A DNA stretch of 64,000 nucleotides from Escherichia phage Lw1, in the sequence record KC801932; one strand, written 5' to 3'. Under the pieces are notes generated by a model. It saw only the letters and a list, made by a program, of their open reading frames with translations, ran no database searches and had not been told where the DNA came from. Made by a program: the position numbers and the translations under genes. Positions 14,128 through 53,029 of this stretch are shown here, piece after piece. Every line of letters starts with the position of its first letter. Position 1 is the stretch's first letter.

Positions 14128-16119
14128 ATGGCTTTACAATCTCCAGGTATTGAAACCAAAGAAACATCGGTACAATCTACCGTTGTTCGAAATTCAACTG
14201 GTCGCGCTGCCATTGTTGGTAAATTTTCATGGGGGCCAGCTTATCAGATCCGTCAGATTTCTAACGAAGTCGAACTGGTAAACTATTTTGGTTCCCCAGA
14301 CAACCTAACCGCTGATTATTTCATGAGTGCTGTTAACTTCTTGCAGTACGGTAATGATCTCCGTGTGGTTCGTGTTGTCGATAAAGATGCCGCAAAAAAC
14401 GCAAGCGCAATTTTTAACCAGATCAAAACAACCATTGCTTCGCAGGGTTCCAACTACACCGTTGGCGACGTAATTAAGGTAAAATATAGCAACAACGTAG
14501 TTGAAGAAAATGGTAAAGTGTCAAAAGTTGACAGTAACGGCAAAATCCTTGCGGTAGTCATCCCAAGCGAAAAAATCGTTGCTCGTGCAAAACAGATCGG
14601 GACTTATCCAGATATTTCTACTGGCTGGACTACTGAAATCGTTTCTCAGTCTTCTGGTGTGTCTGCGTCAATCACGATCGATGGTATCGAAAGCGATTCT
14701 GGTATCACTCTGCTGAACCTGGATATTGCTAAAGAAACCATTCAAGGAACTGCGTTCCAGACACTGACCCAGAAATACCAGATCCCATCTGTTGTGGCTC
14801 TGTATCCTGGCGAACTGGGTTCTACTGTAGAGGTGGAGATTATCTCCAAAGCTGCTTACGATTCTGGCGCTATGATTTCCGGTTTCCCTTCTGGGATCTC
14901 CGTTAAAAACAGCGGTCGCTCTGTGATGACTTATGGTCCACAGACCGAAAACCAGTACGCTTTTGTTGTGCGTCGTGGTGGTATTGTACAAGAATCTTTC
15001 ATCGTGTCAACAGAAAAAACCGACAAAGATATCTACGGCGTAAACATCTATATGGATGACTTTTTCGCTAACGGTGGTTCACAGTACGTATTCGGTACTT
15101 CTATGAACTGGCCTAAAGGCTTCTCCGGTATTCTAGAATTTGGTGGTGGTTTGTCCTCAAACGACACCGTAGGCGCTGATGAACTGATGACTGGTTGGGA
15201 TATGTTCGCTGATCGCGAAGCCCTTCACGTCCCGCTGCTGATTGCTGGTGCTTGTGCTGGTGAAACCGTAGAAGTAATGTCTACTGTTCAGAAGCATGTT
15301 ATCTCGATCGGTGACGAACGTCAGGATTGTACTGTGTTTGTATCGCCTCCGCGTTCTCTTCTGGTGAACATTCCTCTTGCTCAGGCAGTGGATAACATCG
15401 TTGAATGGCGTATGGGATATACAATCAGTGGTAACACTCCGGTAGACAACAACCTGAACGTAAGTTCAAGCTATGGCTTCCTGGATGGTAACTATAAATA
15501 TCAGTATGATAAATACAATGACGTGAACCGCTGGGTTCCGCTGGCAGGTGATATCGCTGGCCTGTGTGTTTACACTGATAGCGTTGCGCAACCGTGGATG
15601 TCTCCGGCTGGTTACAACCGTGGTCAGATCCGTAACTGCATTAAACTGGCTATTGAACCGCGTACTGCACACCGTGACGCGATGTATCAAGTTCAGATTA
15701 ACCCGGTAACAGGTTTTGCAGGTGGCTCTGGTTTCGTTCTGTTCGGTGATAAAACACTGACTAATGTTCCGAGTCCGTTCGATCGTATCAACGTTCGTCG
15801 CTTGTTCAACATGATCAAGAAAGACATCGGGGATAACGCGAAATACAAACTGTTTGAAAACAACGACGATTTCACCCGTGCTTCGTTCCGTATGGATACT
15901 GGTCAGTACATGACGAATATTCGTGCGCTGGGTGGTTGCTATGATTACCGTGTAATCTGCGATACCACGAACAACACGCCGGATGTAATTGATCGTAACG
16001 AGTTTGTAGCGACCATTTACGTGAAACCGCCACGTTCTATCAACTACATCACTCTGAACTTCGTAGCAACGTCTACAGGCGCAGATTTCGATGAATTGGT
16101 AGGGCCACAAGCCGTATAA
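14128..16119 (+). CDS. 18: tail sheath protein gp18
   Basis: 663 aa; N-terminus SPGIETKETSVQSTVV and C-terminus RSINYITLNFVATSTGADFDEL match recalled T4 gp18. Confidence 0.92.
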   Translation: MALQSPGIETKETSVQSTVVRNSTGRAAIVGKFSWGPAYQIRQISNEVELVNYFGSPDNLTADYFMSAVNFLQYGNDLRVVRVVDKDAAKNASAIFNQIKTTIASQGSNYTVGDVIKVKYSNNVVEENGKVSKVDSNGKILAVVIPSEKIVARAKQIGTYPDISTGWTTEIVSQSSGVSASITIDGIESDSGITLLNLDIAKETIQGTAFQTLTQKYQIPSVVALYPGELGSTVEVEIISKAAYDSGAMISGFPSGISVKNSGRSVMTYGPQTENQYAFVVRRGGIVQESFIVSTEKTDKDIYGVNIYMDDFFANGGSQYVFGTSMNWPKGFSGILEFGGGLSSNDTVGADELMTGWDMFADREALHVPLLIAGACAGETVEVMSTVQKHVISIGDERQDCTVFVSPPRSLLVNIPLAQAVDNIVEWRMGYTISGNTPVDNNLNVSSSYGFLDGNYKYQYDKYNDVNRWVPLAGDIAGLCVYTDSVAQPWMSPAGYNRGQIRNCIKLAIEPRTAHRDAMYQVQINPVTGFAGGSGFVLFGDKTLTNVPSPFDRINVRRLFNMIKKDIGDNAKYKLFENNDDFTRASFRMDTGQYMTNIRALGGCYDYRVICDTTNNTPDVIDRNEFVATIYVKPPRSINYITLNFVATSTGADFDELVGPQAV

Positions 16120-24791: not shown

Positions 24792-25021
24792 TAAAACTTC
24801 TCTTCTTCTCCGGTTTCGAGTTCGGCTTTCAGTTCTTCTCGCCGTCCCTTGATCGCGTCACGCATTGAAATATCATCGGATGCTGCGACCTCGACTTCTT
24901 TCACGCGTGTGTTGTAATACTTTTCAAGTTCTTTCAAACCGTCCAGTGTCCGGCACGAAGCAACCTTATTCATGAAATCATCAATCGCGGCTTCGTTTAC
25001 AAATTTGGTAAAACTTTTCAT
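24791..25021 (-). CDS. uvsW.1: UvsW.1-like small protein
   Basis: 76 aa ORF immediately downstream of uvsW on the same strand, as uvsW.1 in T4 (76 aa); assignment by size and synteny. Confidence 0.55.
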   Translation of the reverse strand: MKSFTKFVNEAAIDDFMNKVASCRTLDGLKELEKYYNTRVKEVEVAASDDISMRDAIKGRREELKAELETGEEEKF

Positions 25022-25030
25022 TGTAACCTC

Positions 25031-26530
25031 TTAAATGTCTACTTGTTTGATCACGTAGTCGAATCGTTCTTCGTTGTAGATCCGCACACGTTCGATCGCA
25101 TGTTTCATGCCGTAGTTCGTCGCACTGTATTTATTTTTAGCTGTTTTTGACTTCGACAGCGTAGCCAGGTTATCGACGATATCCCATACAGTTGCAAGCA
25201 GTTTCGAACCATGCTTACGAAGAACACGTCCGATTGACTGTTTCACAACAACAGCGGATTTGCAAGGATGTGCAAAAATGATGTGATGCAGGTTCTTGAT
25301 TGAAATACCTGTACTCAGTACCCCGATCGAACCGATGACGATTAAACCTTTCGTCGATTCTGCAATCTTCTTCATTTCGTTACGATCGTCAATCCCTGTA
25401 TCACCGTTAATCAGTACAACGTTATCGTAAACCTTGCTCAACTGCTCGTATAGCCATTTTCCGTGTTCTTTGTACCGGAACATCACGAATGTGTTTTCGT
25501 TCTTCTCACGGGACAGTTTAAGGGCTAATTTAAGAATCCATGAGTTGCGCCTTGTATGGCTCGTAACGTATTTGATTTCGGTCTGGTAGTCCGCACCTTT
25601 TAACTTCTTAACCTCTTCTTCTTTGTATCGAAGAAAGATTGTGTTAATTTTCAGGTTGGTGACTTGTCCATCATCCATCAGACGACGCGTATCAACTGGT
25701 TTAAAGACTTTACCGAACGCACCGATGTATTGCATCATGTTTGTTTTCCCTTCTTTCAGGGAACCGGATAAGCCCAGTTTGAAGATACATTGATCCATCG
25801 TGTCGATAATCTTTTTGATGCTCATACCTGTTGAGAGGTGGCATTCATCAACCATCAAGCACATGAACTGTTGGAACCATTCGGCAGGCATTTTAACCGC
25901 TGATTGCCAGGTTGAAACGTAAATCAACGCGTTACTGTTTTTTGCTGTGCCGGAACGGATACCAAGCATTGCCGATTTCGGGAACAGTCGATAGTTTGCG
26001 ATGTCTTCGATCATTTGGTCAACAAGTGCGGTAGTCGGAACGATAATCAACACCTTTCCGCTGTAATGTTCCAGACACCAACGAGAGATAAGCCCCTGAA
26101 TCAGAGATTTACCTGCTGATGTTGGCAGGTTCAGGACACCGCGACGGTTTTTGATACCGTGGAATACCGATTCTCTTTGATACCAGTACGGATCTATTTG
26201 TTTGTCACCGTCATAAACTGGATGGTCTTGAATCCACTTGTCAAAACTTTCCTGCGTGATATCCTCAGTTTCATGGATTTTTGGATCAACCCAGATTGAA
26301 TACCCGCGAGACTCTGCAAATTTTGATACCAGATAGGCTAACCCATACGGAAGTTTACCGTTGTAGTCCATCAGGTAGATATACCCGTTCCATCCACCAT
26401 ATTTGTATTTGGCTTGATACTGATAGCCTGGGGGCTGGAATGAAAAATAGTCACGCAGTTCATAGACTATGTTAGCGTCTGCCTGAATCTGTACGTGGCT
26501 TGTGTTTAAATATTTGACTTCAATATCCAC
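25031..26530 (-). CDS. uvsW: DNA/RNA helicase UvsW
   Basis: 499 aa; GTG start; SF2 helicase motifs (PTSAGKS, DECH, TSTG); N-terminus MDIEVKY..., size matches T4 UvsW (about 500 aa). Confidence 0.88.
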   Translation of the reverse strand: MDIEVKYLNTSHVQIQADANIVYELRDYFSFQPPGYQYQAKYKYGGWNGYIYLMDYNGKLPYGLAYLVSKFAESRGYSIWVDPKIHETEDITQESFDKWIQDHPVYDGDKQIDPYWYQRESVFHGIKNRRGVLNLPTSAGKSLIQGLISRWCLEHYSGKVLIIVPTTALVDQMIEDIANYRLFPKSAMLGIRSGTAKNSNALIYVSTWQSAVKMPAEWFQQFMCLMVDECHLSTGMSIKKIIDTMDQCIFKLGLSGSLKEGKTNMMQYIGAFGKVFKPVDTRRLMDDGQVTNLKINTIFLRYKEEEVKKLKGADYQTEIKYVTSHTRRNSWILKLALKLSREKNENTFVMFRYKEHGKWLYEQLSKVYDNVVLINGDTGIDDRNEMKKIAESTKGLIVIGSIGVLSTGISIKNLHHIIFAHPCKSAVVVKQSIGRVLRKHGSKLLATVWDIVDNLATLSKSKTAKNKYSATNYGMKHAIERVRIYNEERFDYVIKQVDI

Positions 26531-44773: not shown

Positions 44774-45010
44774 ATGAAAATCAAAAATACTGCTACTGAA
44801 AATCTTTGCAACGAAATCGCGGTGACTTACTGGAAAGAAGGTCACGCAAAAGCAATGAAGGATTTTCAACACTGGAAAGAAGGTCACGCAAAAGCAATGA
44901 AGGATTTTCAACCGTGGTGTGATACCCAGAAGTTAGCCAAATGGGAATACATCGTAATCGTGGAACGGATCAAAGAACTGATCCTTGAGAAGAAAGGCAC
45001 TATAAAATGA
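44774..45010 (+). CDS. hypothetical small protein containing an in-frame 14-codon tandem duplication
   Basis: 78 aa; WKEGHAKAMKDFQH / WKEGHAKAMKDFQP encoded by the 42-bp tandem repeat. Confidence 0.45.
   Translation: MKIKNTATENLCNEIAVTYWKEGHAKAMKDFQHWKEGHAKAMKDFQPWCDTQKLAKWEYIVIVERIKELILEKKGTIK
44830..44913 (+). repeat. perfect-over-40-nt tandem duplication, period 42 bp, 2 copies
   Basis: ctggaaagaaggtcacgcaaaagcaatgaaggattttcaa at 44830-44869 and again at 44872-44911. Confidence 0.9.
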
Positions 45011-45626: not shown

Positions 45627-46574
45627 ATGATCCTGAATTTCAAAACCCGTAATGAAGCCCGTAAGTATTGCTGGAAGTGGAACATTCCGCCGAAAAACAT
45701 CAAAAAGCATAACGATGGTTCAAACCATCCGTGGCGCGTAACAACCGAAGAAACCATGTTCAAAGTAGGACGTGATTATAAACTGGTTGATGTTGAAGGT
45801 TTTACCGAAGGTGGTAAAAATCGCGCAAATAAAGTACAGGCAGAACAAATCAATGCTCATTTGAATGGCGTGATCTCCCTGGTAAGCAAAGACGGCGACA
45901 AGTTCCGTTTTAAATCTCCGGCTAACGTAGCAATGGACGTTGTGCGTCCGTGGGAAGCGCGTTTCTTCAAAGAAGTTGCATCAGTTGTCAACGCAAAGCC
46001 GAAGAAAGCCGCTGCTGCTAAAAGACCAACGAAAGTAACACCAGTGAAGCCTGAAATCAAACCTGCTCCGGTTGAAGATCTGGACGCGGTGCTTGATGGT
46101 GGTGTTAACCTCGCTCCGGTTGAAGAAAAAACGTTTAGCGAAGCATGGCCTGGTATTTTTGTAACCAATACACCTTACGTTCTGGTTGACGAAGATGGTT
46201 TCATTGCTGCACATCACGGCGATGCAAATAAAATCATTGTCGATTACATGAAATCGAACAATAATGTTCTCGTGTTCGACTTTTTTGACCAAGACGGTGA
46301 CGCTATTATAAAAACCAACGGGCAACGTCTACCGTATGTTATGAAACGTGAGCGTAAATTCTTCCGCGAACTGGGTACTGGTAAAGCTCCAGAAACTCCA
46401 GCAGTACAGGCGGTTGATATCGAAGCTCAGAAACGTGATCAAGAAATCATCGCTGCTGCTCAGAAAGTAGAAGACGCACTGGCAGAACACCAGAAAGCAA
46501 TCGAAATCGTACAGAAAGCCGCTCGCGCTGTTCGCGAAGCTGCACAAGAACTTGCGCTCCTGGCACGTAAGTAA
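45627..46574 (+). CDS. hypothetical protein with lysine/alanine/proline-rich linker
   Basis: 315 aa; central low-complexity AKPKKAAAAKRPTKVTPVKPEIKPAPV; no recognised family. Confidence 0.5.
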   Translation: MILNFKTRNEARKYCWKWNIPPKNIKKHNDGSNHPWRVTTEETMFKVGRDYKLVDVEGFTEGGKNRANKVQAEQINAHLNGVISLVSKDGDKFRFKSPANVAMDVVRPWEARFFKEVASVVNAKPKKAAAAKRPTKVTPVKPEIKPAPVEDLDAVLDGGVNLAPVEEKTFSEAWPGIFVTNTPYVLVDEDGFIAAHHGDANKIIVDYMKSNNNVLVFDFFDQDGDAIIKTNGQRLPYVMKRERKFFRELGTGKAPETPAVQAVDIEAQKRDQEIIAAAQKVEDALAEHQKAIEIVQKAARAVREAAQELALLARK

Positions 46575-46609: not shown

Positions 46610-46623
46610 ATTTGAGGTATATT

Positions 46624-47340
46624 ATGGAATTGTTAGCTGGAAAAACTTACGGGTTGACCGTATCCCCAGAAGTGTTTGCTGAAAAGACCTGGAAAACTGG
46701 TATCGCTGGAATCCTTCGTGATAAAGGTTATATTACTGTTGACAGAACTTCTATTGGTGAATTTGAAGACCGCGCATTTATTGTCGATGGTGGATATGAA
46801 TACGAAATTCCATCTTCTGAATGGAAATGGTTTAAAGAAGTAACCCCGCAAGATGGTGAATTCGTGGAACCTACACAGGAAGTTCAGTCTGATACGCGAG
46901 AAATGGATGGTTTCGTTGCTCAGAATATAGAAAAACTGGACATCCCTTCTTTTACGTTTCAGGATTCAGACGGTTTTAAAACGATGCCACTCGCACCGTA
47001 CAACCCGATTAAAAATCTGGACATCCACACCACTTTCGGAAAAGAACTGGAAGAGATCCGCATCGTTCCTGATCCCTGCAACAAATCTGGACTGCATTTG
47101 CGTTTCGCGTTGCAACATCTTTTCAATGGTGGTAGCATCTATCAAATCGATATGGAAAGCTCGCTGAAAACTCAGGAAGAAGAGATCGAAAAACTTTTCA
47201 ATCTTCATGCCCGATTAGAAGCAGTTGAACACATCGAAAAACTGTTAGGCAAAGAGAAAGCGCGAATTGTGCAAGAACTCGCGCCATACGGAAAGAAAGA
47301 TGAAAGTAGAAATTTACGGAATTCCCGAAAACGTTCATAA
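46624..47340 (+). CDS. hypothetical protein
   Basis: 238 aa from ATG 46624 (TGAGGT upstream); 3' end overlaps the nrdH start in another frame. Confidence 0.45.
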   Translation: MELLAGKTYGLTVSPEVFAEKTWKTGIAGILRDKGYITVDRTSIGEFEDRAFIVDGGYEYEIPSSEWKWFKEVTPQDGEFVEPTQEVQSDTREMDGFVAQNIEKLDIPSFTFQDSDGFKTMPLAPYNPIKNLDIHTTFGKELEEIRIVPDPCNKSGLHLRFALQHLFNGGSIYQIDMESSLKTQEEEIEKLFNLHARLEAVEHIEKLLGKEKARIVQELAPYGKKDESRNLRNSRKRS

Positions 47341-47578: not shown

Positions 47579-47890
47579 ATGAGCCGTGAAATTTTACTCC
47601 CTGCTGCAAACGCGATCCACGCTGAAACGATGGAATACATGGAAAATTTTGTTGAACGTGATAACACCGCGATCATCACTCCTATTCACTTGGACGCGCT
47701 TGAAGATAGTCTTCATAAGCAGATTAAAAATCAATTCCCTGAAAAAGTTAGTCGCAATTTTGTTCGTCAGGAAATCGTTGCAATGATCCTGAAACATTAC
47801 GGTGTCGAAATGTTCGGCGTTAAACCTATTGCGAAAACACAAAATGAAATTTCGGAAAAGACGATTAAGAAGTACGCTAAGAAGAAATGA
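47579..47890 (+). CDS. hypothetical protein
   Basis: 103 aa ORF; start overlaps the nrdH stop. Confidence 0.5.
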   Translation: MSREILLPAANAIHAETMEYMENFVERDNTAIITPIHLDALEDSLHKQIKNQFPEKVSRNFVRQEIVAMILKHYGVEMFGVKPIAKTQNEISEKTIKKYAKKK

Positions 47891-49314
47891 TTTTTGAAAC
47901 GATTGAATGTGTTCCGTCAAGTGGTAAGACAAAGGCGATTCTGAACCATATCAATCAAACGGGCGAAAAAGCAATCATAGCGTCGATTTCCATGATGTTA
48001 TCAAAGCAGTCTTACGACTACTACATCAATGAAGTAAAAGGGAAACGCGCTGTGATTGTGGACACGGATCACCGAACAAAACGAACCAACAATGATGCAC
48101 TGAAAGAAGTAATCAAAGATTACGATGTGATTTTTATCACTCATGCAGCGCTTAAAAATATCAATGACTTTGATTTGTATAAGGATTATTCCTTGTATAT
48201 TGATGAAGTTCCTGATTTGGTATCGTTCGAAAGTTTGCGATTTAATAGCAATATCAAGCACATACGCGAGATTTGCTTGCCGTTTAGTTGCAATGCCGAT
48301 GACATCGTTGATTTAAAACTTGACGAAGAAAAACGAGAACTGGTTACACGATTAGCCTATGATGGGCTAAGAAAACGTGATGATATCGCAGTTAAAATGT
48401 TCCCGCTTTACCGCGCTCTGTTGGGCGAAATTCCGGTAAAGATGCAATGCAGTGATACGGGATACGTATGCTACTTCGTAGAAGATCATGACGTTAGCCA
48501 GTGGAAGTTTAAAAATGTGACCATTGCTTCATCTAACATCAAGGACACGATAACAGGAAAAATCCTGAAAACGTTTCATGATGTGGAATTCGAAGAATCA
48601 CCGCTTCAAAAACTGGTGGACTTCAAGCAATACAAAAACACTGGGCGCATACATATACATGTGCTCGCAGAGGGGGATTATTCGCGTTATACGGGCGATC
48701 TCTCTCAATCTGGAACGACAGTATACACCCAGATTAAAAAACGCGTAGAGGCGCTTTTAGGGGGCGAACAGTTCATCTATTGCACCAACACGTACAGATC
48801 GAAGTTTAGTGAAGGGCAAGAAATTCCTTACAACTCGCATGGGTTGAACTTCTATTCAAGTTACACAAATGTGGTTGCGCTATTCAGTTACAACCCGTTA
48901 CCCTGGCTGCGTCAAATGCTTCGAGCGGTGGCGGTATCCTCTGGATTAGAAGAGGAAGAATTGGTTGATGCGTATGTTGTCAGTAAATACTATGAACCAG
49001 CCTTTCAATTATGCGCTCGTTCTGATATTCGCCACAACAACAGCAAACGCAAAATTAATTTGTTTGTGCCTGATATGCGGTTAGCAAAATACATGAAGGA
49101 AAAATATTTTCCTGATGCTGTTATCGAAACCACAGAAGCAGTACAAACGAAAAGGCAACGCAGATCATTTCAGTCTCTTTTCCAGATGACAGCACAAGAA
49201 ATAAATGCTTTCAACTGGTACAAAAAGAAACATAAACTTGAATTTGCTAATCCTCTTCATCACGCAATTGTGAAAGATTGGCTTAACAATTACCGTGAGA
49301 AAAAGGCGACTTGA
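47887..49314 (+). CDS. hypothetical P-loop protein
   Basis: 475 aa; Walker A-like VPSSGKTKA near the N-terminus and Walker B-like LYIDEV; family not recognised. Confidence 0.5.
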   Translation: MIFETIECVPSSGKTKAILNHINQTGEKAIIASISMMLSKQSYDYYINEVKGKRAVIVDTDHRTKRTNNDALKEVIKDYDVIFITHAALKNINDFDLYKDYSLYIDEVPDLVSFESLRFNSNIKHIREICLPFSCNADDIVDLKLDEEKRELVTRLAYDGLRKRDDIAVKMFPLYRALLGEIPVKMQCSDTGYVCYFVEDHDVSQWKFKNVTIASSNIKDTITGKILKTFHDVEFEESPLQKLVDFKQYKNTGRIHIHVLAEGDYSRYTGDLSQSGTTVYTQIKKRVEALLGGEQFIYCTNTYRSKFSEGQEIPYNSHGLNFYSSYTNVVALFSYNPLPWLRQMLRAVAVSSGLEEEELVDAYVVSKYYEPAFQLCARSDIRHNNSKRKINLFVPDMRLAKYMKEKYFPDAVIETTEAVQTKRQRRSFQSLFQMTAQEINAFNWYKKKHKLEFANPLHHAIVKDWLNNYREKKAT

Positions 49315-49329
49315 TGGTCGCCTTTTTTG
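49304..49329 (+). terminator. rho-independent terminator overlapping the stop codon
   Basis: GGCGAC-ttgatg-GTCGCC followed by TTTTTT; the TGA stop sits in the loop. Confidence 0.75.
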
Positions 49330-49331
49330 TT

Positions 49332-49339
49332 TATAAATA
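49332..49339 (+). promoter_or_regulatory. T4-type late promoter core TATAAATA upstream of gene 34
   Basis: Exact TATAAATA, 31 nt upstream of the gp34 ATG. Confidence 0.55.
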
Positions 49340-49369
49340 TCAATATTGAATAGATAAAGGAAAACGATA

Positions 49370-52300
49370 ATGGTAGCTAAATCATTCCGCGCCACAAGTG
49401 GCCTTGATGCTGCTGGCGAAAAGGTTATCAACGTTGGTAAAGCATCCCGCTCTGTGTTGAGCGACGGCGTGAACGTTGACTTTTTTAACGAATTTAACAC
49501 CGTGCAACAGTATGATCCCGATCGCGGATATTCTGCATACATGGCGATCATCTATGCGCGTCGTATTTGGTATGCTCGTGCTGATATTGCATCACCTGCT
49601 GGGGCATTCGATGAAACAAAATGGATCTCAACTCGTAACGATCCAAAATGGGTTTATAATAACGTAACCAGTGTTGACGGTCTTCCCGTTGAATCTGGCA
49701 CATACTTAATGGCTGATGGACGTTTTTCTGAACTGACCTATGTTCTGCCTGATTCCCCTGTAGAGGGTGATATTGTCACGATTAAAGATGGTGGCGGTAT
49801 GGTTGGTGTCAACAGTATGTTGGTACGTTCCAACACTCGTCAGATCCGTCTTCGTGATGCTCAGTCAAGTTCTTATCGACTGACTCACCCATATATGACC
49901 GTTGCGTTTATTTTTAACGGTAACTTATGGCGCGTTTCTGAAATGCGTGATAACAGGGATTCCCAGTTTGTTAACGCAACTGGTGCGGGTTCTTTCCAGA
50001 TGCAGTCCGGTATGGTTACGTTCCGTAATAGCGGTACTGGTAAAATCACTCTGCAATTGCCGAAATATGCAAACGATGGTGACTCAATCACAACCTATGA
50101 CCTGGATAAACTCAGTTCTGTAAACGTTGCGACTTTGCAGGTTTACCCGAACAGCGGACATACTATTACGTATGATAGCATTAACGGCGTAACCTCTGTT
50201 GCTTCACAGCGTTCCGGTTATGGTATATTCATCTTTGACCAGACTAACAACCGCTGGGTTGTCTATGATGGTGATAACCGCGTTCGTCTGCGTCGTATCA
50301 GTGACGACCTGAACATGCTCCCGAATGATTATGTTTTCGTTACTCCTATTGCTGGGAACCCCCCTACAGTACGTAACGTAACATTAACCCTCCCGCAAGA
50401 TGTTGCAGAAGGGGATCGCGTGTACATCAGTATGTACATGATGGGTAAAACGCAGAACTGTACGATCAAAGTTAAAGATGGTTCTGGTGAAACGATCCGT
50501 ACCAACAAAAACATGATGCAGTTCCCACAGCGTAAAGATTATCCACCTGATGACTGGTTCAGTGTAACTACGCTTTCGTTTAACGCTGATACTGACTATC
50601 TTCCGTATATGGAATTGTCTTATCTGAAAGCAACGAAAGAATGGGTTGTTGCACAATATCGACCACTGGTTGAACGTGTCGATCCGACTAACCGTTCTCG
50701 TCTGGGTGTTATCGCTCTGGCTACTCAAGCAGAAGTGAACAAGAACCATGAAGATACACCGTCCGATGAACTGGCAGTAACCCCGCGCACACTGGCGAAT
50801 AAAACTGCTACTGAAACGCGTCGTGGTATTGCTCGCCTGGCGACAACTGCGGAAGTAAACCAGAACACTACGGCTACTTTTTTGGATGACGTAATCGTAA
50901 CGCCTAAAAAGCTGAACGAACGTACAGCAACAGAAGATCGTCGCGGTATACTGGAAATTGCAACTCAGGCAGAAACAAACGCTGGTACTGATGACAATAC
51001 CGCAATCACGCCTAAAAAGCTCGATGCGCGTCGTGCGTCCGAAACTTTAGCAGGTATCGGTAAACTCGTCACAACAGGCGATACGACTGCTGAGGGGGCT
51101 TTACGTGGGGATGCTGGCACTAACGTCTATAACTTCAATAACGGTGTTGATCTGATCACTCCGAAATCGTTGAACGAAAAGACGGCAACCGAGAAATCAA
51201 AAGGTTTGGTTGTTCTCGCGACTGAAAACGAAGTGGTTACGGGTGCTGCTGCGGGATCTGCTTCAATGCCGATCGTAGTTACTCCTGAAATGCTGCATCG
51301 TAAAACGTCTACTGAGGCGCGGATCGGTTTGATTGAGATCGCTACCCAAACAGAAACAAACGCGGGTACTGATGATTTACGTGCGGTTACTCCTAAGAAA
51401 CTGAACGATCGTAAAGCGACGGAAACCCTTGACGGCATTATTGCACTGGCAACCACTGCGGAAGTTGCGGCAGGGACAGTAACCAATAAGGCAGTTGTTC
51501 CGGTTAAACTGAAAGAGTTCTTCGACGTTACGAGTCATGTTGCTGTTGCGACTGTTGACGGCTTGACTCAATCAGGTACTATCTGGACAACGGTTAATCT
51601 GGGGATCGCGGCTGCTACTGAAACTCAACGTGGTACTTTACGCGTTGCAACTCAGGCAGAAACAAACGCGGGTACTCTTGATACTGTTATCATCACTGCG
51701 AAGAAACTGCAAGCGAAAAAAGCAACTGACACAGCAGAAGGTATCATTCGTTGTGCAACTAACAGCGAAGCGGCTGCGGGTACTTCAACGACTCTTGCAA
51801 TCACTCCGGCTACCATGCAATATCTGAATGGTAACGATCCGGCGTGGGGTGCAACCACTGTTCGTCGTGGTGCTGTGTTTATCACGACTAAATCGAATAC
51901 GTTTATCGGTGATAATCTGGTCGGTTCTACACAGCCAGTGGATAACTATCTGGAAGATTTCTACGCTGTATCGCCTCGCGGTTTGAACTATGCTTTGCAG
52001 AACTTCTTACCTTTGAATGCGACAGCACAGAATAGCCTGAAACTGGGTGGCGTTGTTGCTGCAAGCTGGATGCGTCGTGATGCTGATCAAACCGTAACGG
52101 GCAACAACACGTTCAACGGTACGAGTAACTTTGTGGGTAACGTAACCACTAACGGAACTCTGACGGCTAACGCGGCGGTGACTGTAAACAATACCGTAAC
52201 GACGAACAACAACATTAACCAGTCTGCGAAAGCAAACACTGTTTATGCAAATACGGTTCTGAGTTCTGCGGCTGCTGGTACTAAAAACCTGCTTCGTACT

Positions 52301-53029
52301 TTCCGTGGTGGTACAACGGATACAACGTGGCATGAAACGGTACAAGCAAGTGCATATCGCCTGGCGACTGGTACAACGGATACTGTTGATGTTCTGACGG
52401 TTGGTGATACCACAAACGGTGTTCTGGCTTACTACGGTAACACGTTGCGCCTGAACAGCAAAGCACTGGCGAATATTAACGCAAACGGTGATGTTGCTAT
52501 TGCAAGTGACGCAAGTCCTTCGATACAATTACGAACCGCTGCAACAAACGGCTGGAACGGGGTTGTTATCAGTAACGACAACGGAACTACCACAGCGACG
52601 GTGATCAACACTCGCAACTTTACCCAACACCTTGACAGTACCTATGTCAACGTAACGGGTGACACGATGACTGGCACACTGTCAGTTAACGTTAGCGGTA
52701 CGGGTGGACGCTTTACCAGTGTAAGCGGTACAGCACATATTCAGGCAGGTGATTTCGCTGGGGCAACTCAGAAAATGCGTCTGACTGGTATCAATGACCA
52801 GGTATTGACTGAATTTAACATCAATATCACCGATTACAATAAAGCGATGATCAACGGCAACCTGATCTATCATGCAGGTCGTAAGCCTACTCCGGCAGAA
52901 ATCGGGGCGGTTGCGGTTGCAGGTTCGACGGTTGATACGCTGGTTGTTCGTGACTACATCAAGATCGGAAACGTGAAAATCTACGCAAATCCAGTCACTA
53001 AGACTTGTGAATTTGAGTGGGAGGAATAA
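49370..53029 (+). CDS. 34: long tail fibre proximal subunit gp34
   Basis: 1219 aa; N-terminus FRATSGLDAAGEKVINV...GVNVDF...NTVQQYDPDRGY...KPAGAFDETKW matches recalled T4 gp34; many repeats of the fibre motif A-T-Q/T-A-E-x-N-A-G-T-DD-x-x-A-x-TPKKL. Confidence 0.88.
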   Translation: MVAKSFRATSGLDAAGEKVINVGKASRSVLSDGVNVDFFNEFNTVQQYDPDRGYSAYMAIIYARRIWYARADIASPAGAFDETKWISTRNDPKWVYNNVTSVDGLPVESGTYLMADGRFSELTYVLPDSPVEGDIVTIKDGGGMVGVNSMLVRSNTRQIRLRDAQSSSYRLTHPYMTVAFIFNGNLWRVSEMRDNRDSQFVNATGAGSFQMQSGMVTFRNSGTGKITLQLPKYANDGDSITTYDLDKLSSVNVATLQVYPNSGHTITYDSINGVTSVASQRSGYGIFIFDQTNNRWVVYDGDNRVRLRRISDDLNMLPNDYVFVTPIAGNPPTVRNVTLTLPQDVAEGDRVYISMYMMGKTQNCTIKVKDGSGETIRTNKNMMQFPQRKDYPPDDWFSVTTLSFNADTDYLPYMELSYLKATKEWVVAQYRPLVERVDPTNRSRLGVIALATQAEVNKNHEDTPSDELAVTPRTLANKTATETRRGIARLATTAEVNQNTTATFLDDVIVTPKKLNERTATEDRRGILEIATQAETNAGTDDNTAITPKKLDARRASETLAGIGKLVTTGDTTAEGALRGDAGTNVYNFNNGVDLITPKSLNEKTATEKSKGLVVLATENEVVTGAAAGSASMPIVVTPEMLHRKTSTEARIGLIEIATQTETNAGTDDLRAVTPKKLNDRKATETLDGIIALATTAEVAAGTVTNKAVVPVKLKEFFDVTSHVAVATVDGLTQSGTIWTTVNLGIAAATETQRGTLRVATQAETNAGTLDTVIITAKKLQAKKATDTAEGIIRCATNSEAAAGTSTTLAITPATMQYLNGNDPAWGATTVRRGAVFITTKSNTFIGDNLVGSTQPVDNYLEDFYAVSPRGLNYALQNFLPLNATAQNSLKLGGVVAASWMRRDADQTVTGNNTFNGTSNFVGNVTTNGTLTANAAVTVNNTVTTNNNINQSAKANTVYANTVLSSAAAGTKNLLRTFRGGTTDTTWHETVQASAYRLATGTTDTVDVLTVGDTTNGVLAYYGNTLRLNSKALANINANGDVAIASDASPSIQLRTAATNGWNGVVISNDNGTTTATVINTRNFTQHLDSTYVNVTGDTMTGTLSVNVSGTGGRFTSVSGTAHIQAGDFAGATQKMRLTGINDQVLTEFNINITDYNKAMINGNLIYHAGRKPTPAEIGAVAVAGSTVDTLVVRDYIKIGNVKIYANPVTKTCEFEWEE

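Follow-up and report, generated by a model that had tools for sequence, protein, structure and literature searches.

An uncharacterised gene upstream of gene 34 in Escherichia phage Lw1 encodes a member of a distinct superfamily 2 helicase family with XPD/DinG-like architecture

Introduction

The window analysed here, a stretch of 64,000 nucleotides from the genome of Escherichia phage Lw1 (sequence record KC801932), carries immediately upstream of gene 34 a 475-codon open reading frame (ORF; 47887-49314, + strand, ATG start) that raises two questions: what does its product do, and how does it come to lie next to a gene for the long tail fibre? In the original prediction, made from the DNA sequence, it was described as an uncharacterised gene for a P-loop protein with a Walker A motif VPSSGKTKA and a Walker B motif LYIDEV, with no recognisable helicase motifs beyond these, occupying its position as a non-T4 replacement. 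We find that this is a genuine P-loop nucleoside triphosphatase (NTPase) gene, and that the description as uncharacterised is accurate, since some 240 phage records list the gene as 'hypothetical' and its protein family, PHROG 2467, is entered as of 'unknown function'. However, the protein has further helicase motifs, and it belongs to a distinct family within superfamily 2 (SF2) with an XPD/DinG-like architecture. Its position beside gene 34 is best understood as the product of a large inversion, as discussed below. The ORF is the ortholog of RB16p255, RB49p044 and PHG25ORF049c in related phages.

Helicase motifs and their conservation

To describe the motifs we use an alignment of 94 family members, which are 16-27% identical to the query; all coordinates are on the + strand. 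Motif I, or Walker A (VPSSGKTKA, residues 9-17, including SSGKT at residues 11-15 with G13, K14 and T15; 47911-47937), is followed by a motif Ia-like segment IIASISMMLSKQS (47974-48012), for which the family consensus is AxPTxxLxxQ and which aligns with the DEAD-box PTRELAxQ in hidden Markov model alignments, and by a motif Ib-like segment VIFITHAAL (48127-48153), in which T85 and H86 are invariant in phage members and which aligns with the DEAD-box TPGRL region. Motif II, or Walker B (LYIDEVPD, residues 103-110, including DEVP at residues 106-109, with D106 and E107 invariant; 48193-48216), is separated from the motif III-like VTIASSN (48517-48537; family consensus LxAN) by an insertion of about 100 residues (residues 110-210; 48214-48516) at the position of the Arch domain of XPD and DinG. 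Further along lie a motif V-like segment YNSHGLNFY (48829-48855), with G319 invariant and N321 at least 90% conserved, and motif VI, YEPAFQLCARSDIR (48991-49032), with Q374, R378 and R382 invariant, the arginines of which are putative arginine fingers. The protein ends in a basic, helical C-terminal tail (KRQRRSF...W465...R470; 49150-49311) containing 12 K/R residues versus 4 D/E.

The only residues that are invariant throughout the family alignment are K14, D106, E107, G319, Q374, R378 and R382, with G13 conserved in at least 90% of the sequences, and the family consensus also includes THxxL at motif Ib and IDExP at motif II. That invariance is confined to NTPase residues in proteins only 16-27% identical to the query speaks for purifying selection on the NTPase active site. 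Motif by motif the family reads AS/PTxxLxxQS (Ia), FITHxAL (Ib), DEVP (II), TIAxxN (III-like), HGLN (V) and QLCxRxDIR (VI), and conserved cysteines are limited to C130 and C376. The claim that helicase motifs are missing beyond Walker A and B therefore fails, as motifs Ia, Ib, III-like, V and VI are all present, and it is further contradicted by the Pfam DEAD matches of the homologs and by the two-RecA SF2 helicase fold, nearest to XPD/DinG, described in the following sections.

Sequence relationships

The window protein matches PHROG 2467 (E = 3e-194), and an exhaustive profile search recovers 1,692 cluster representatives of the family at E <= 1e-3. When 31 diverse homologs are scanned singly, 15 of them match Pfam DEAD (best E = 2e-7), several of the 94 aligned homologs carry a precomputed DEAD-helicase match, and longer relatives surpass the gathering scores of both DEAD and ResIII (P0119, for example, scores 39.1 bits versus a cut-off of 26). 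Searched against the PDB, the 94-sequence profile finds DDX42 (E = 3e-6, the best match), PriA, Mfd, UvrB and NS3 by way of motifs I-II, and DDX52 and MjDEAD are also among its matches; the best match of a narrow, phage-only profile has E = 0.4. Weak PADLOC matches to type IV DinG occur among some relatives, and PADLOC gives no significant match for the phage clade. Matches of the window protein to SERRATE_Ars2_N (E = 0.077) and to a 2-oxoacid oxidoreductase (E = 0.0011) in the Pfam, NCBIfam and PADLOC scans were taken as noise.

A DEAD/DEAH match below threshold (E = 0.069) was tabulated in 2006 for the RB49 protein RB49ORF044c (PMC1524935), which we confirm to be an ortholog of the window helicase. 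Our literature searches found no follow-up of that match and no description of this helicase family.

Predicted structure

The AlphaFold2 model, built from a 31-sequence alignment (predicted local distance difference test, pLDDT, 88.8; predicted template modelling score, pTM, 0.77), predicts two RecA-like domains bearing motifs I, Ia, Ib, II, III, V and VI, with the motif VI arginines placed in domain 2. The insertion between motif II and TIASSN (residues 110-210) is modelled as a beta strand, an alpha helix, a beta strand, two long helices and two beta strands; as an isolated domain it gives no significant match in the PDB. Residues 43-103 hold core RecA elements alone in the model, with no iron-sulphur (Fe-S) or vestigial Fe-S domain.

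The best overall structural similarity of the model is to the XPD/Rad3/DinG family. The matches include Finegoldia DinG (9kqh_A; score 18.6, 347 residues aligned), DinG of a type IV-A3 CRISPR system (8s35_M; 18.0, 310 residues), XPD (3crv_A; 17.7, 307 residues, and 2vl7_A; 17.6, 309 residues) and Rad3 (5fmf_Y; 17.5, 322 residues). Scores fall to 12-15, over some 230-267 aligned residues, for Snf2-type motors, SecA and DEAD-box proteins, and to 12.2 for T4 UvsW; the additional 80-90 residues that align with XPD/DinG correspond to the 110-210 insertion. With Foldseek the top 16 matches are all XPD, DinG or CasDinG (E = 2e-9 to 3e-7, TM score 0.35-0.49).

Comparison with known helicases

The window protein resembles XPD, Rad3 and DinG in its two-RecA motor, in a predicted accessory domain within RecA1 between motifs II and III, and in the Q...R...R arrangement of motif VI, but it lacks the DEAD_2, Helicase_C_2 and HBB signatures of these proteins, and at 475 residues it is smaller than the matched chains, which have 550-900. 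With DEAD-box and generic SF2 proteins (PF00270 DEAD and PF04851 ResIII; RhlE, DDX42, PriA and Mfd) it has in common motifs I, Ia, Ib and II, which are detectable by profile. However, it has no Q motif, because the P-loop begins at residue 9 and leaves no room upstream for one, and in place of DEAD, SAT and HRxGRxGR it has DEVP, TIASSN and FQLCARSDIR. It also differs from the DEAD-box proteins in the large insertion between motifs II and III and in a RecA2 domain that Helicase_C does not detect, and its structural scores with them are below those with XPD/DinG. We conclude that the protein belongs to a distinct SF2 family with XPD/DinG-like architecture and is a member of neither the XPD/DinG nor the DEAD-box family.

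Like the window helicase, T4 UvsW, the SF2 helicase already known from this phage group, is an SF2-fold protein of T4-like phages, of about 500-590 residues, outside the replisome core. We considered whether the helicase might be a divergent UvsW and rejected this, as the two proteins match in BLASTP only at E = 0.074 and the window contains a separate, full-length UvsW ortholog (24800-26530, - strand; 50% identity to T4 UvsW over 587 residues).

Helicases of Pseudomonas islands (for example P0094, P0290 and P0300) are true, full-length homologs sharing both the motifs and the insertion; P0094, which is named a DEAD/DEAH box helicase, is 24% identical to the window protein at 99% coverage (E = 1e-15). 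They differ in being chromosomal, in lying beside a tyrosine integrase and a serine resolvase, and in that many of them have a C-terminal helix-turn-helix (HTH) domain. The Pseudomonas members, named 'DEAD/DEAH box helicase family protein', are likewise functionally uncharacterised.

The gene and its upstream partner 55.2

The helicase is 98.5% identical to its counterpart in Buttiauxella phage GuL6, 97.7% to that in Citrobacter phage Miller and 96.8% to that in E. coli phage RB16, which identifies the window as part of a T4-like phage of the RB16/RB43 type, genus Pseudotevenvirus. Directly upstream lies a homolog of T4 gene 55.2 (47579-47890, + strand; 36% identity, E = 1.7e-10 in tblastn with T4 55.2), annotated as 55.2 in RB16, and the helicase ATG overlaps its stop codon in the sequence ATGA (47887-47890). 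The T4 55.2 product is an inhibitor of host topoisomerase I (PMC4396842). In RB16 the order is nrdD, nrdG, nrdH, 55.2, RB16p255 (annotated 'conserved hypothetical phage protein') and gene 34, and tight linkage of 55.2 and the helicase is also seen in JSE, RB49 and PX29. We conclude that the helicase is the last gene of an early/middle nrdD-nrdG-nrdH-55.2 transcription unit, and that it is translationally coupled to 55.2 through the ATGA overlap.

The N-terminus of the ORF, including Walker A, is kept in all homologs in the alignment, so the start at 47887 is right. In Citrobacter phage Miller the annotated start of the ortholog, CPTMiller_00263 (NC_025414, 162339-163766; locus L007, 1501-2928), is 55 codons too late; this start would lose Walker A and is wrong, since both homology and the ATGA overlap with 55.2 favour the longer ORF.

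Genomic position and a probable large inversion

Other T4-like phages, namely the Krischviruses JSE and RB49, the Angelvirus PX29 and the Tulanevirus phage 25, have the ortholog between 55.2 and the late sigma factor gene, 55, and the unrearranged order is nrdD-nrdG-...-nrdH-55.2-[helicase]-55-a-gt.4-47-46. T4 has this same order with a small, unrelated gene, 55.1, in the helicase slot; the idea that 55.1 might be what is left of the helicase in T4 was rejected, as hhalign of 55.1 against the family gives a probability of 0.7%. Upstream of gene 34 and divergent from it T4 has rnh, dsbA, 33 and 59, so that the original prediction was correct in naming rnh, dsbA and 33 as the T4 neighbours. The gene is absent from T4, as the term 'non-T4 replacement' implies, but it is no replacement of rnh, dsbA and 33, because these are intact beside gene 55 in RB16, where the block 32-59-33-dsbA-rnh is divergent from and adjoins gene 55. 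We did not find 32, 59, 33, dsbA, rnh or gene 55 in the window.

The junctions of the helicase with gene 55 and of rnh with gene 34 have thus been exchanged for helicase-gene 34 and rnh-gene 55, which is what inverting the segment between the two junctions would yield, and a reciprocal swap by a large inversion in RB16/RB43-type genomes is very probably the explanation. The helicase would then adjoin gene 34 because the RB16/RB43-type lineage inverted a large segment, and gene 34 (49370-53029, + strand; long tail fibre proximal subunit) would be the downstream neighbour that this inversion produced. A second, nested inversion explains the remaining gene order of RB16. In keeping with this, both RB43 and RB16 have been described as having a unique, rearranged genome topology (PMC1524935; PMC2993671). 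One breakpoint pair of the rearrangement can be placed in two intergenic regions, 49299-49369 of the window and 31.1-31.4 kb of RB16 (locus L014, 31084-31407).

Terminator and late promoter

The end of the helicase gene lies within an intrinsic terminator hairpin (49299-49328, + strand) that consists of an A-tract, GGCGAC, a loop containing the UGA stop, GTCGCC and a T-run. The RNA forms a stem of 13 bp capped by a UGAU tetraloop (free energy -18.1 kcal/mol, z = -5.15, none of 200 shuffles equally stable), with the stop codon (49312-49314) inside the tetraloop and the T-run 3' of the hairpin; it was found by direct folding and was missed by a scanner based on terminator consensus patterns. Just beyond it is a T4-type late promoter of gene 34, TATAAATA (49332-49339, + strand), located 30 nt 5' of the gene 34 ATG at 49370, and both hairpin and promoter are kept in RB16 and Miller. 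Folding and the promoter octamer together thus bear out the description of a stop codon in the loop of a strong terminator directly followed by the gene 34 late promoter. The terminator ends the early/middle nrd-55.2-helicase unit and, after the inversion, insulates it from the co-directional late gene 34.

The octamer TATAAATA occurs nine times in the window versus 2.7 expected, a number reached in no shuffle. The sites are at 15493, 16142, 16655, 18939, 19589, 28275, 32689 (- strand), 49332 and 56993, and this roughly threefold excess, with eight of the nine on the + strand, fits mainly rightward late transcription over the window.

In JSE (locus L002, 6455-6490) a hairpin with a GAAA loop spans the TAG stop of the helicase just 5' of gene 55, and in Aeromonas phage 25 (locus L004, 6410-6445) a GGCCTC/GAGGCC hairpin spans the helicase TGA and is followed by TTTGTTG. 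The helicase therefore closes a transcription unit in the unrearranged genomes also, and the placing of the stop codon within a terminator predates the RB16-type inversion.

Distribution among phages

By tblastn the helicase is present in 240 of 50,697 phage records, at 36-98% identity, and gp55 in 1,969, so that about one in eight T4-like records has it; T4 and the phages close to it do not. The survey of T4-like phages that had been suggested as a check thus shows that this is not a core gene. Among Aeromonas phages 77 records carry it, equal to the number of Aeromonas records with gp55. It further occurs in T4-like phages of the RB49-like and RB43-like groups and of Proteus, Serratia, Cronobacter and Vibrio, and in the jumbo Agrobacterium phage Atu_ph07. 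Gene 55.2 is far commoner, with at least 1,008 records. The guanine-plus-cytosine content of the helicase gene equals that of its neighbours, and there is no compositional sign of recent horizontal transfer.

A link between presence of the helicase and DNA lacking hydroxymethyl-cytosine was considered and rejected, as phage 25 has both the helicase and gene 42; phages 44RR, 31 and 25 of Aeromonas are described as having gene 42 (PMC2993671).

Relatives outside T4-like phages

The Pseudomonas homologs are 480-527 residues long, and many carry a C-terminal HTH_23, HTH_7 or HTH_Tnp_1 domain. In each of the three Pseudomonas cases examined a DUF6538/tyrosine integrase gene lies directly upstream of the helicase gene and a serine resolvase gene downstream of it; in Thalassotalea, too, a homolog has a resolvase nearby. 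In the phage protein the place of the bacterial HTH is taken by the basic, helical tail; no homology between the two was demonstrated, as the hhalign alignment covered the end of the helicase core and nothing else. Plasmid carriers of the family are limited to three Sinorhizobium megaplasmids.

The module of integrase, helicase (with or without HTH) and resolvase forms the constant end of small islands (Pseudomonas loci L005, 6405-9584; L010, 6425-10359; and L012, 6425-11890), two of which are near dnaX/ybaB/recR. Their cargo is variable and includes Hachiman (HamA and the DEAD helicase HamB), reverse transcriptases (one of them fused to trypsin), MazG-like proteins and DUF8370/8371. Literature searches on Pseudomonas islands and on DUF6538 found no description of this type of element.

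A long form of the protein, of about 760-835 residues, makes up about one third of the best 150 family representatives. It occurs in unrelated phage genomes, such as that of Agrobacterium phage Atu_ph07 (locus L015, 4995-7283), and in a wastewater metagenome contig (locus L020, 7001-9508), and has the same helicase core with a C-terminal extension of about 300 residues that has no Pfam match; the 835-residue relative sits in a phage-like metagenomic contig.

Proposed function and alternatives

We propose that the gene encodes an active, ATP-driven SF2 helicase or translocase of a distinct, uncharacterised family with an accessory role, a reading that we consider somewhat favoured on balance. 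Its parts are not equally secure. The protein is very probably a working NTPase motor of SF2 fold; a role on DNA, in its replication, recombination or repair, is rather more plausible than otherwise; and a DinG/XPD-like mechanism with 5' to 3' movement is a tentative suggestion. What the analysis demonstrates is the gene, its motifs and fold, its conservation, its synteny and the rearrangement; we infer the ATPase activity, the DNA substrate, the polarity and the biological role of the helicase, and picture its action as follows. ATP would be bound and hydrolysed in the cleft between the RecA domains (by K14, D106/E107, Q374, R378 and R382), leading to translocation of the motor along a single nucleic-acid strand held beneath the arch-like insertion. 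This strand would most probably be DNA, to judge from the nearest structures and from the association of the homologs with DNA recombination. Forks, D-loops, R-loops, bound proteins and other such intermediates of phage DNA might then be unwound or remodelled by the protein, as an accessory helicase beside gp41, Dda and UvsW. As the window encodes UvsW, and RB16 also encodes Dda and gp41, it would be a fourth helicase-type protein and not a substitute for one of these.

A number of results weigh against this proposal. Scanned alone, the window protein matches no Pfam family above threshold, and neither DEAD_2 (PF06733) nor Helicase_C_2 (PF13307) is matched by the query, the 31 homologs or 10 long relatives. 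There is no four-cysteine 4Fe-4S domain between motifs Ia and II such as XPD, Rad3 and DinG have, and the Foldseek TM scores are moderate (0.42-0.49). About 88% of the gp55-bearing records lack the gene, which is therefore dispensable for the T4-like lifestyle. Profile comparison and structure prediction, as called for in the original prediction, place the structure nearest to XPD/DinG but the sequence nearer to the DEAD-box proteins, since hhalign gives a probability of 85% (E = 6e-6) for E. coli RhlE versus 12% for E. coli DinG, and the more DEAD-box-like character of motifs I-II makes RNA a possible substrate. Some accepted members of the DinG group, CasDinG and Staphylococcus aureus DinG, are also without an Fe-S cluster.

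In one alternative the protein is a DEAD-box-like RNA helicase or RNA chaperone whose targets are transcripts of the phage or the host, with a part, for instance, in mRNA processing or translation control of early and middle messages. Besides RhlE, the best sequence matches of motifs I-II are all to DEAD-box proteins (Pfam DEAD, DDX42, DDX52 and MjDEAD), and the 2006 match of RB49ORF044c is of the same kind. Nevertheless, the signatures of that family are missing, with no Q motif, DEVP in place of DEAD, ASS/ACAN in place of SAT and QLCxRxDIR in place of HRxGRxGR; the best matches of the whole structure are DNA helicases, and the relatives occur with DNA-binding HTH domains and recombinases, so that an RNA-directed role appears distinctly improbable. 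The same HTH domains and recombinases suggest a different possibility, that of a site-specific initiator or mobilisation helicase derived from or shared with mobile elements, in which the basic tail would read a specific stretch of DNA, an origin for instance, for the motor to open. The location of the Pseudomonas homologs between the DUF6538/tyrosine integrase and the resolvase at a conserved island end, the resolvase near the Thalassotalea homolog, and the basic, helical character and position of the phage tail are all consistent with such a role. However, the phage tail has no significant similarity to the bacterial HTH, and T4-like phages start replication by R-loops and recombination and are not known to use a dedicated origin-binding helicase; by analogy with the island proteins this function may be entertained, but we think it unlikely.

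It has also to be considered that the protein is a factor in counter-defence or competition and not an enzyme of replication or repair. As a DinG-like motor it might strip phage DNA of R-loops or of protein-DNA complexes such as CRISPR and other surveillance complexes, or it might disrupt islands or satellites that bear the homologous gene. The patchy, accessory distribution among T4-like lineages would fit, as would the location among early host-takeover genes beside 55.2, the gene for a topoisomerase I inhibitor, the structural resemblance to CasDinG, and the place of homologs in the core of islands whose defence cargo includes Hachiman HamA/HamB and reverse transcriptases. This support is purely circumstantial, however: the phage clade has no significant PADLOC match, no anti-defence protein of such a fold and function is known, and strict catalytic conservation is expected equally of a housekeeping helicase. 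We regard this role as a long shot. As for the idea that the ORF is decaying or non-functional and its P-loop a chance match, the absence of a Pfam match for the window protein alone and the 'hypothetical' label in every annotation might seem to favour it, but it is effectively refuted by the conservation of the full-length ORF in some 240 phage genomes, at identities between 98% and 36%, by the 1,692 matching cluster representatives, by the invariant catalytic residues of the aligned family members and by a confident structure prediction.

Returning to the proposal of an accessory SF2 helicase, an extension of it would be that T4-like phages and defence-carrying islands have in common a new, Fe-S-less family of XPD/DinG-like helicases, which in the phages works with gp55.2 on R-loops or supercoiling-dependent intermediates and of which the island copy drives replication or mobilisation. 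The phage pair might act in processing of origin R-loops or in removal of surveillance complexes, and the island copy might respond to phage infection. Joint action with gp55.2 is speculated from the adjacency and coupling to 55.2 alone, and we give the extended scheme little weight.

Significance

Helicases are common in phages, and the present result conflicts with no established biology; it is a useful re-annotation, that of an SF2 superfamily member forming a family of its own, and will not surprise specialists. It provides a testable annotation, that of an SF2 helicase or translocase with XPD/DinG-like architecture, for a 'hypothetical' gene in about 240 genomes and for PHROG 2467, and shows that a number of T4-like lineages have, in addition to gp41, Dda and UvsW, a fourth helicase-type protein. 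At least one reference genome, that of Citrobacter phage Miller, has a mis-called start codon that is corrected here, and the comparison pins one breakpoint pair of the RB16/RB43-type inversion to the helicase-gene 55 and rnh-gene 34 intergenic regions. The tie to an uncharacterised core gene of defence-carrying integrative islands may exceed the phage gene in general interest.

Other features of the nrd region

Between nrdG and nrdH are two conserved hypothetical ORFs, both on the + strand, at 45627-46574 (315 residues, RB16p251) and 46612-47340 (242 residues, RB16p252), with no T4 counterpart at the equivalent position. The product of the former has an Ala/Lys/Pro-rich linker and a coiled-coil-like C-terminal segment. 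A small conserved hypothetical ORF at 44774-45010 holds a perfect 42-bp tandem duplication (44829-44912, + strand; 2.0 copies, 100% match), which adds 14 amino acids (WKEGHAKAMKDFQ...) to its product. As RB16p248 (64 residues) is exactly 14 residues shorter, the duplication looks recent and in frame.

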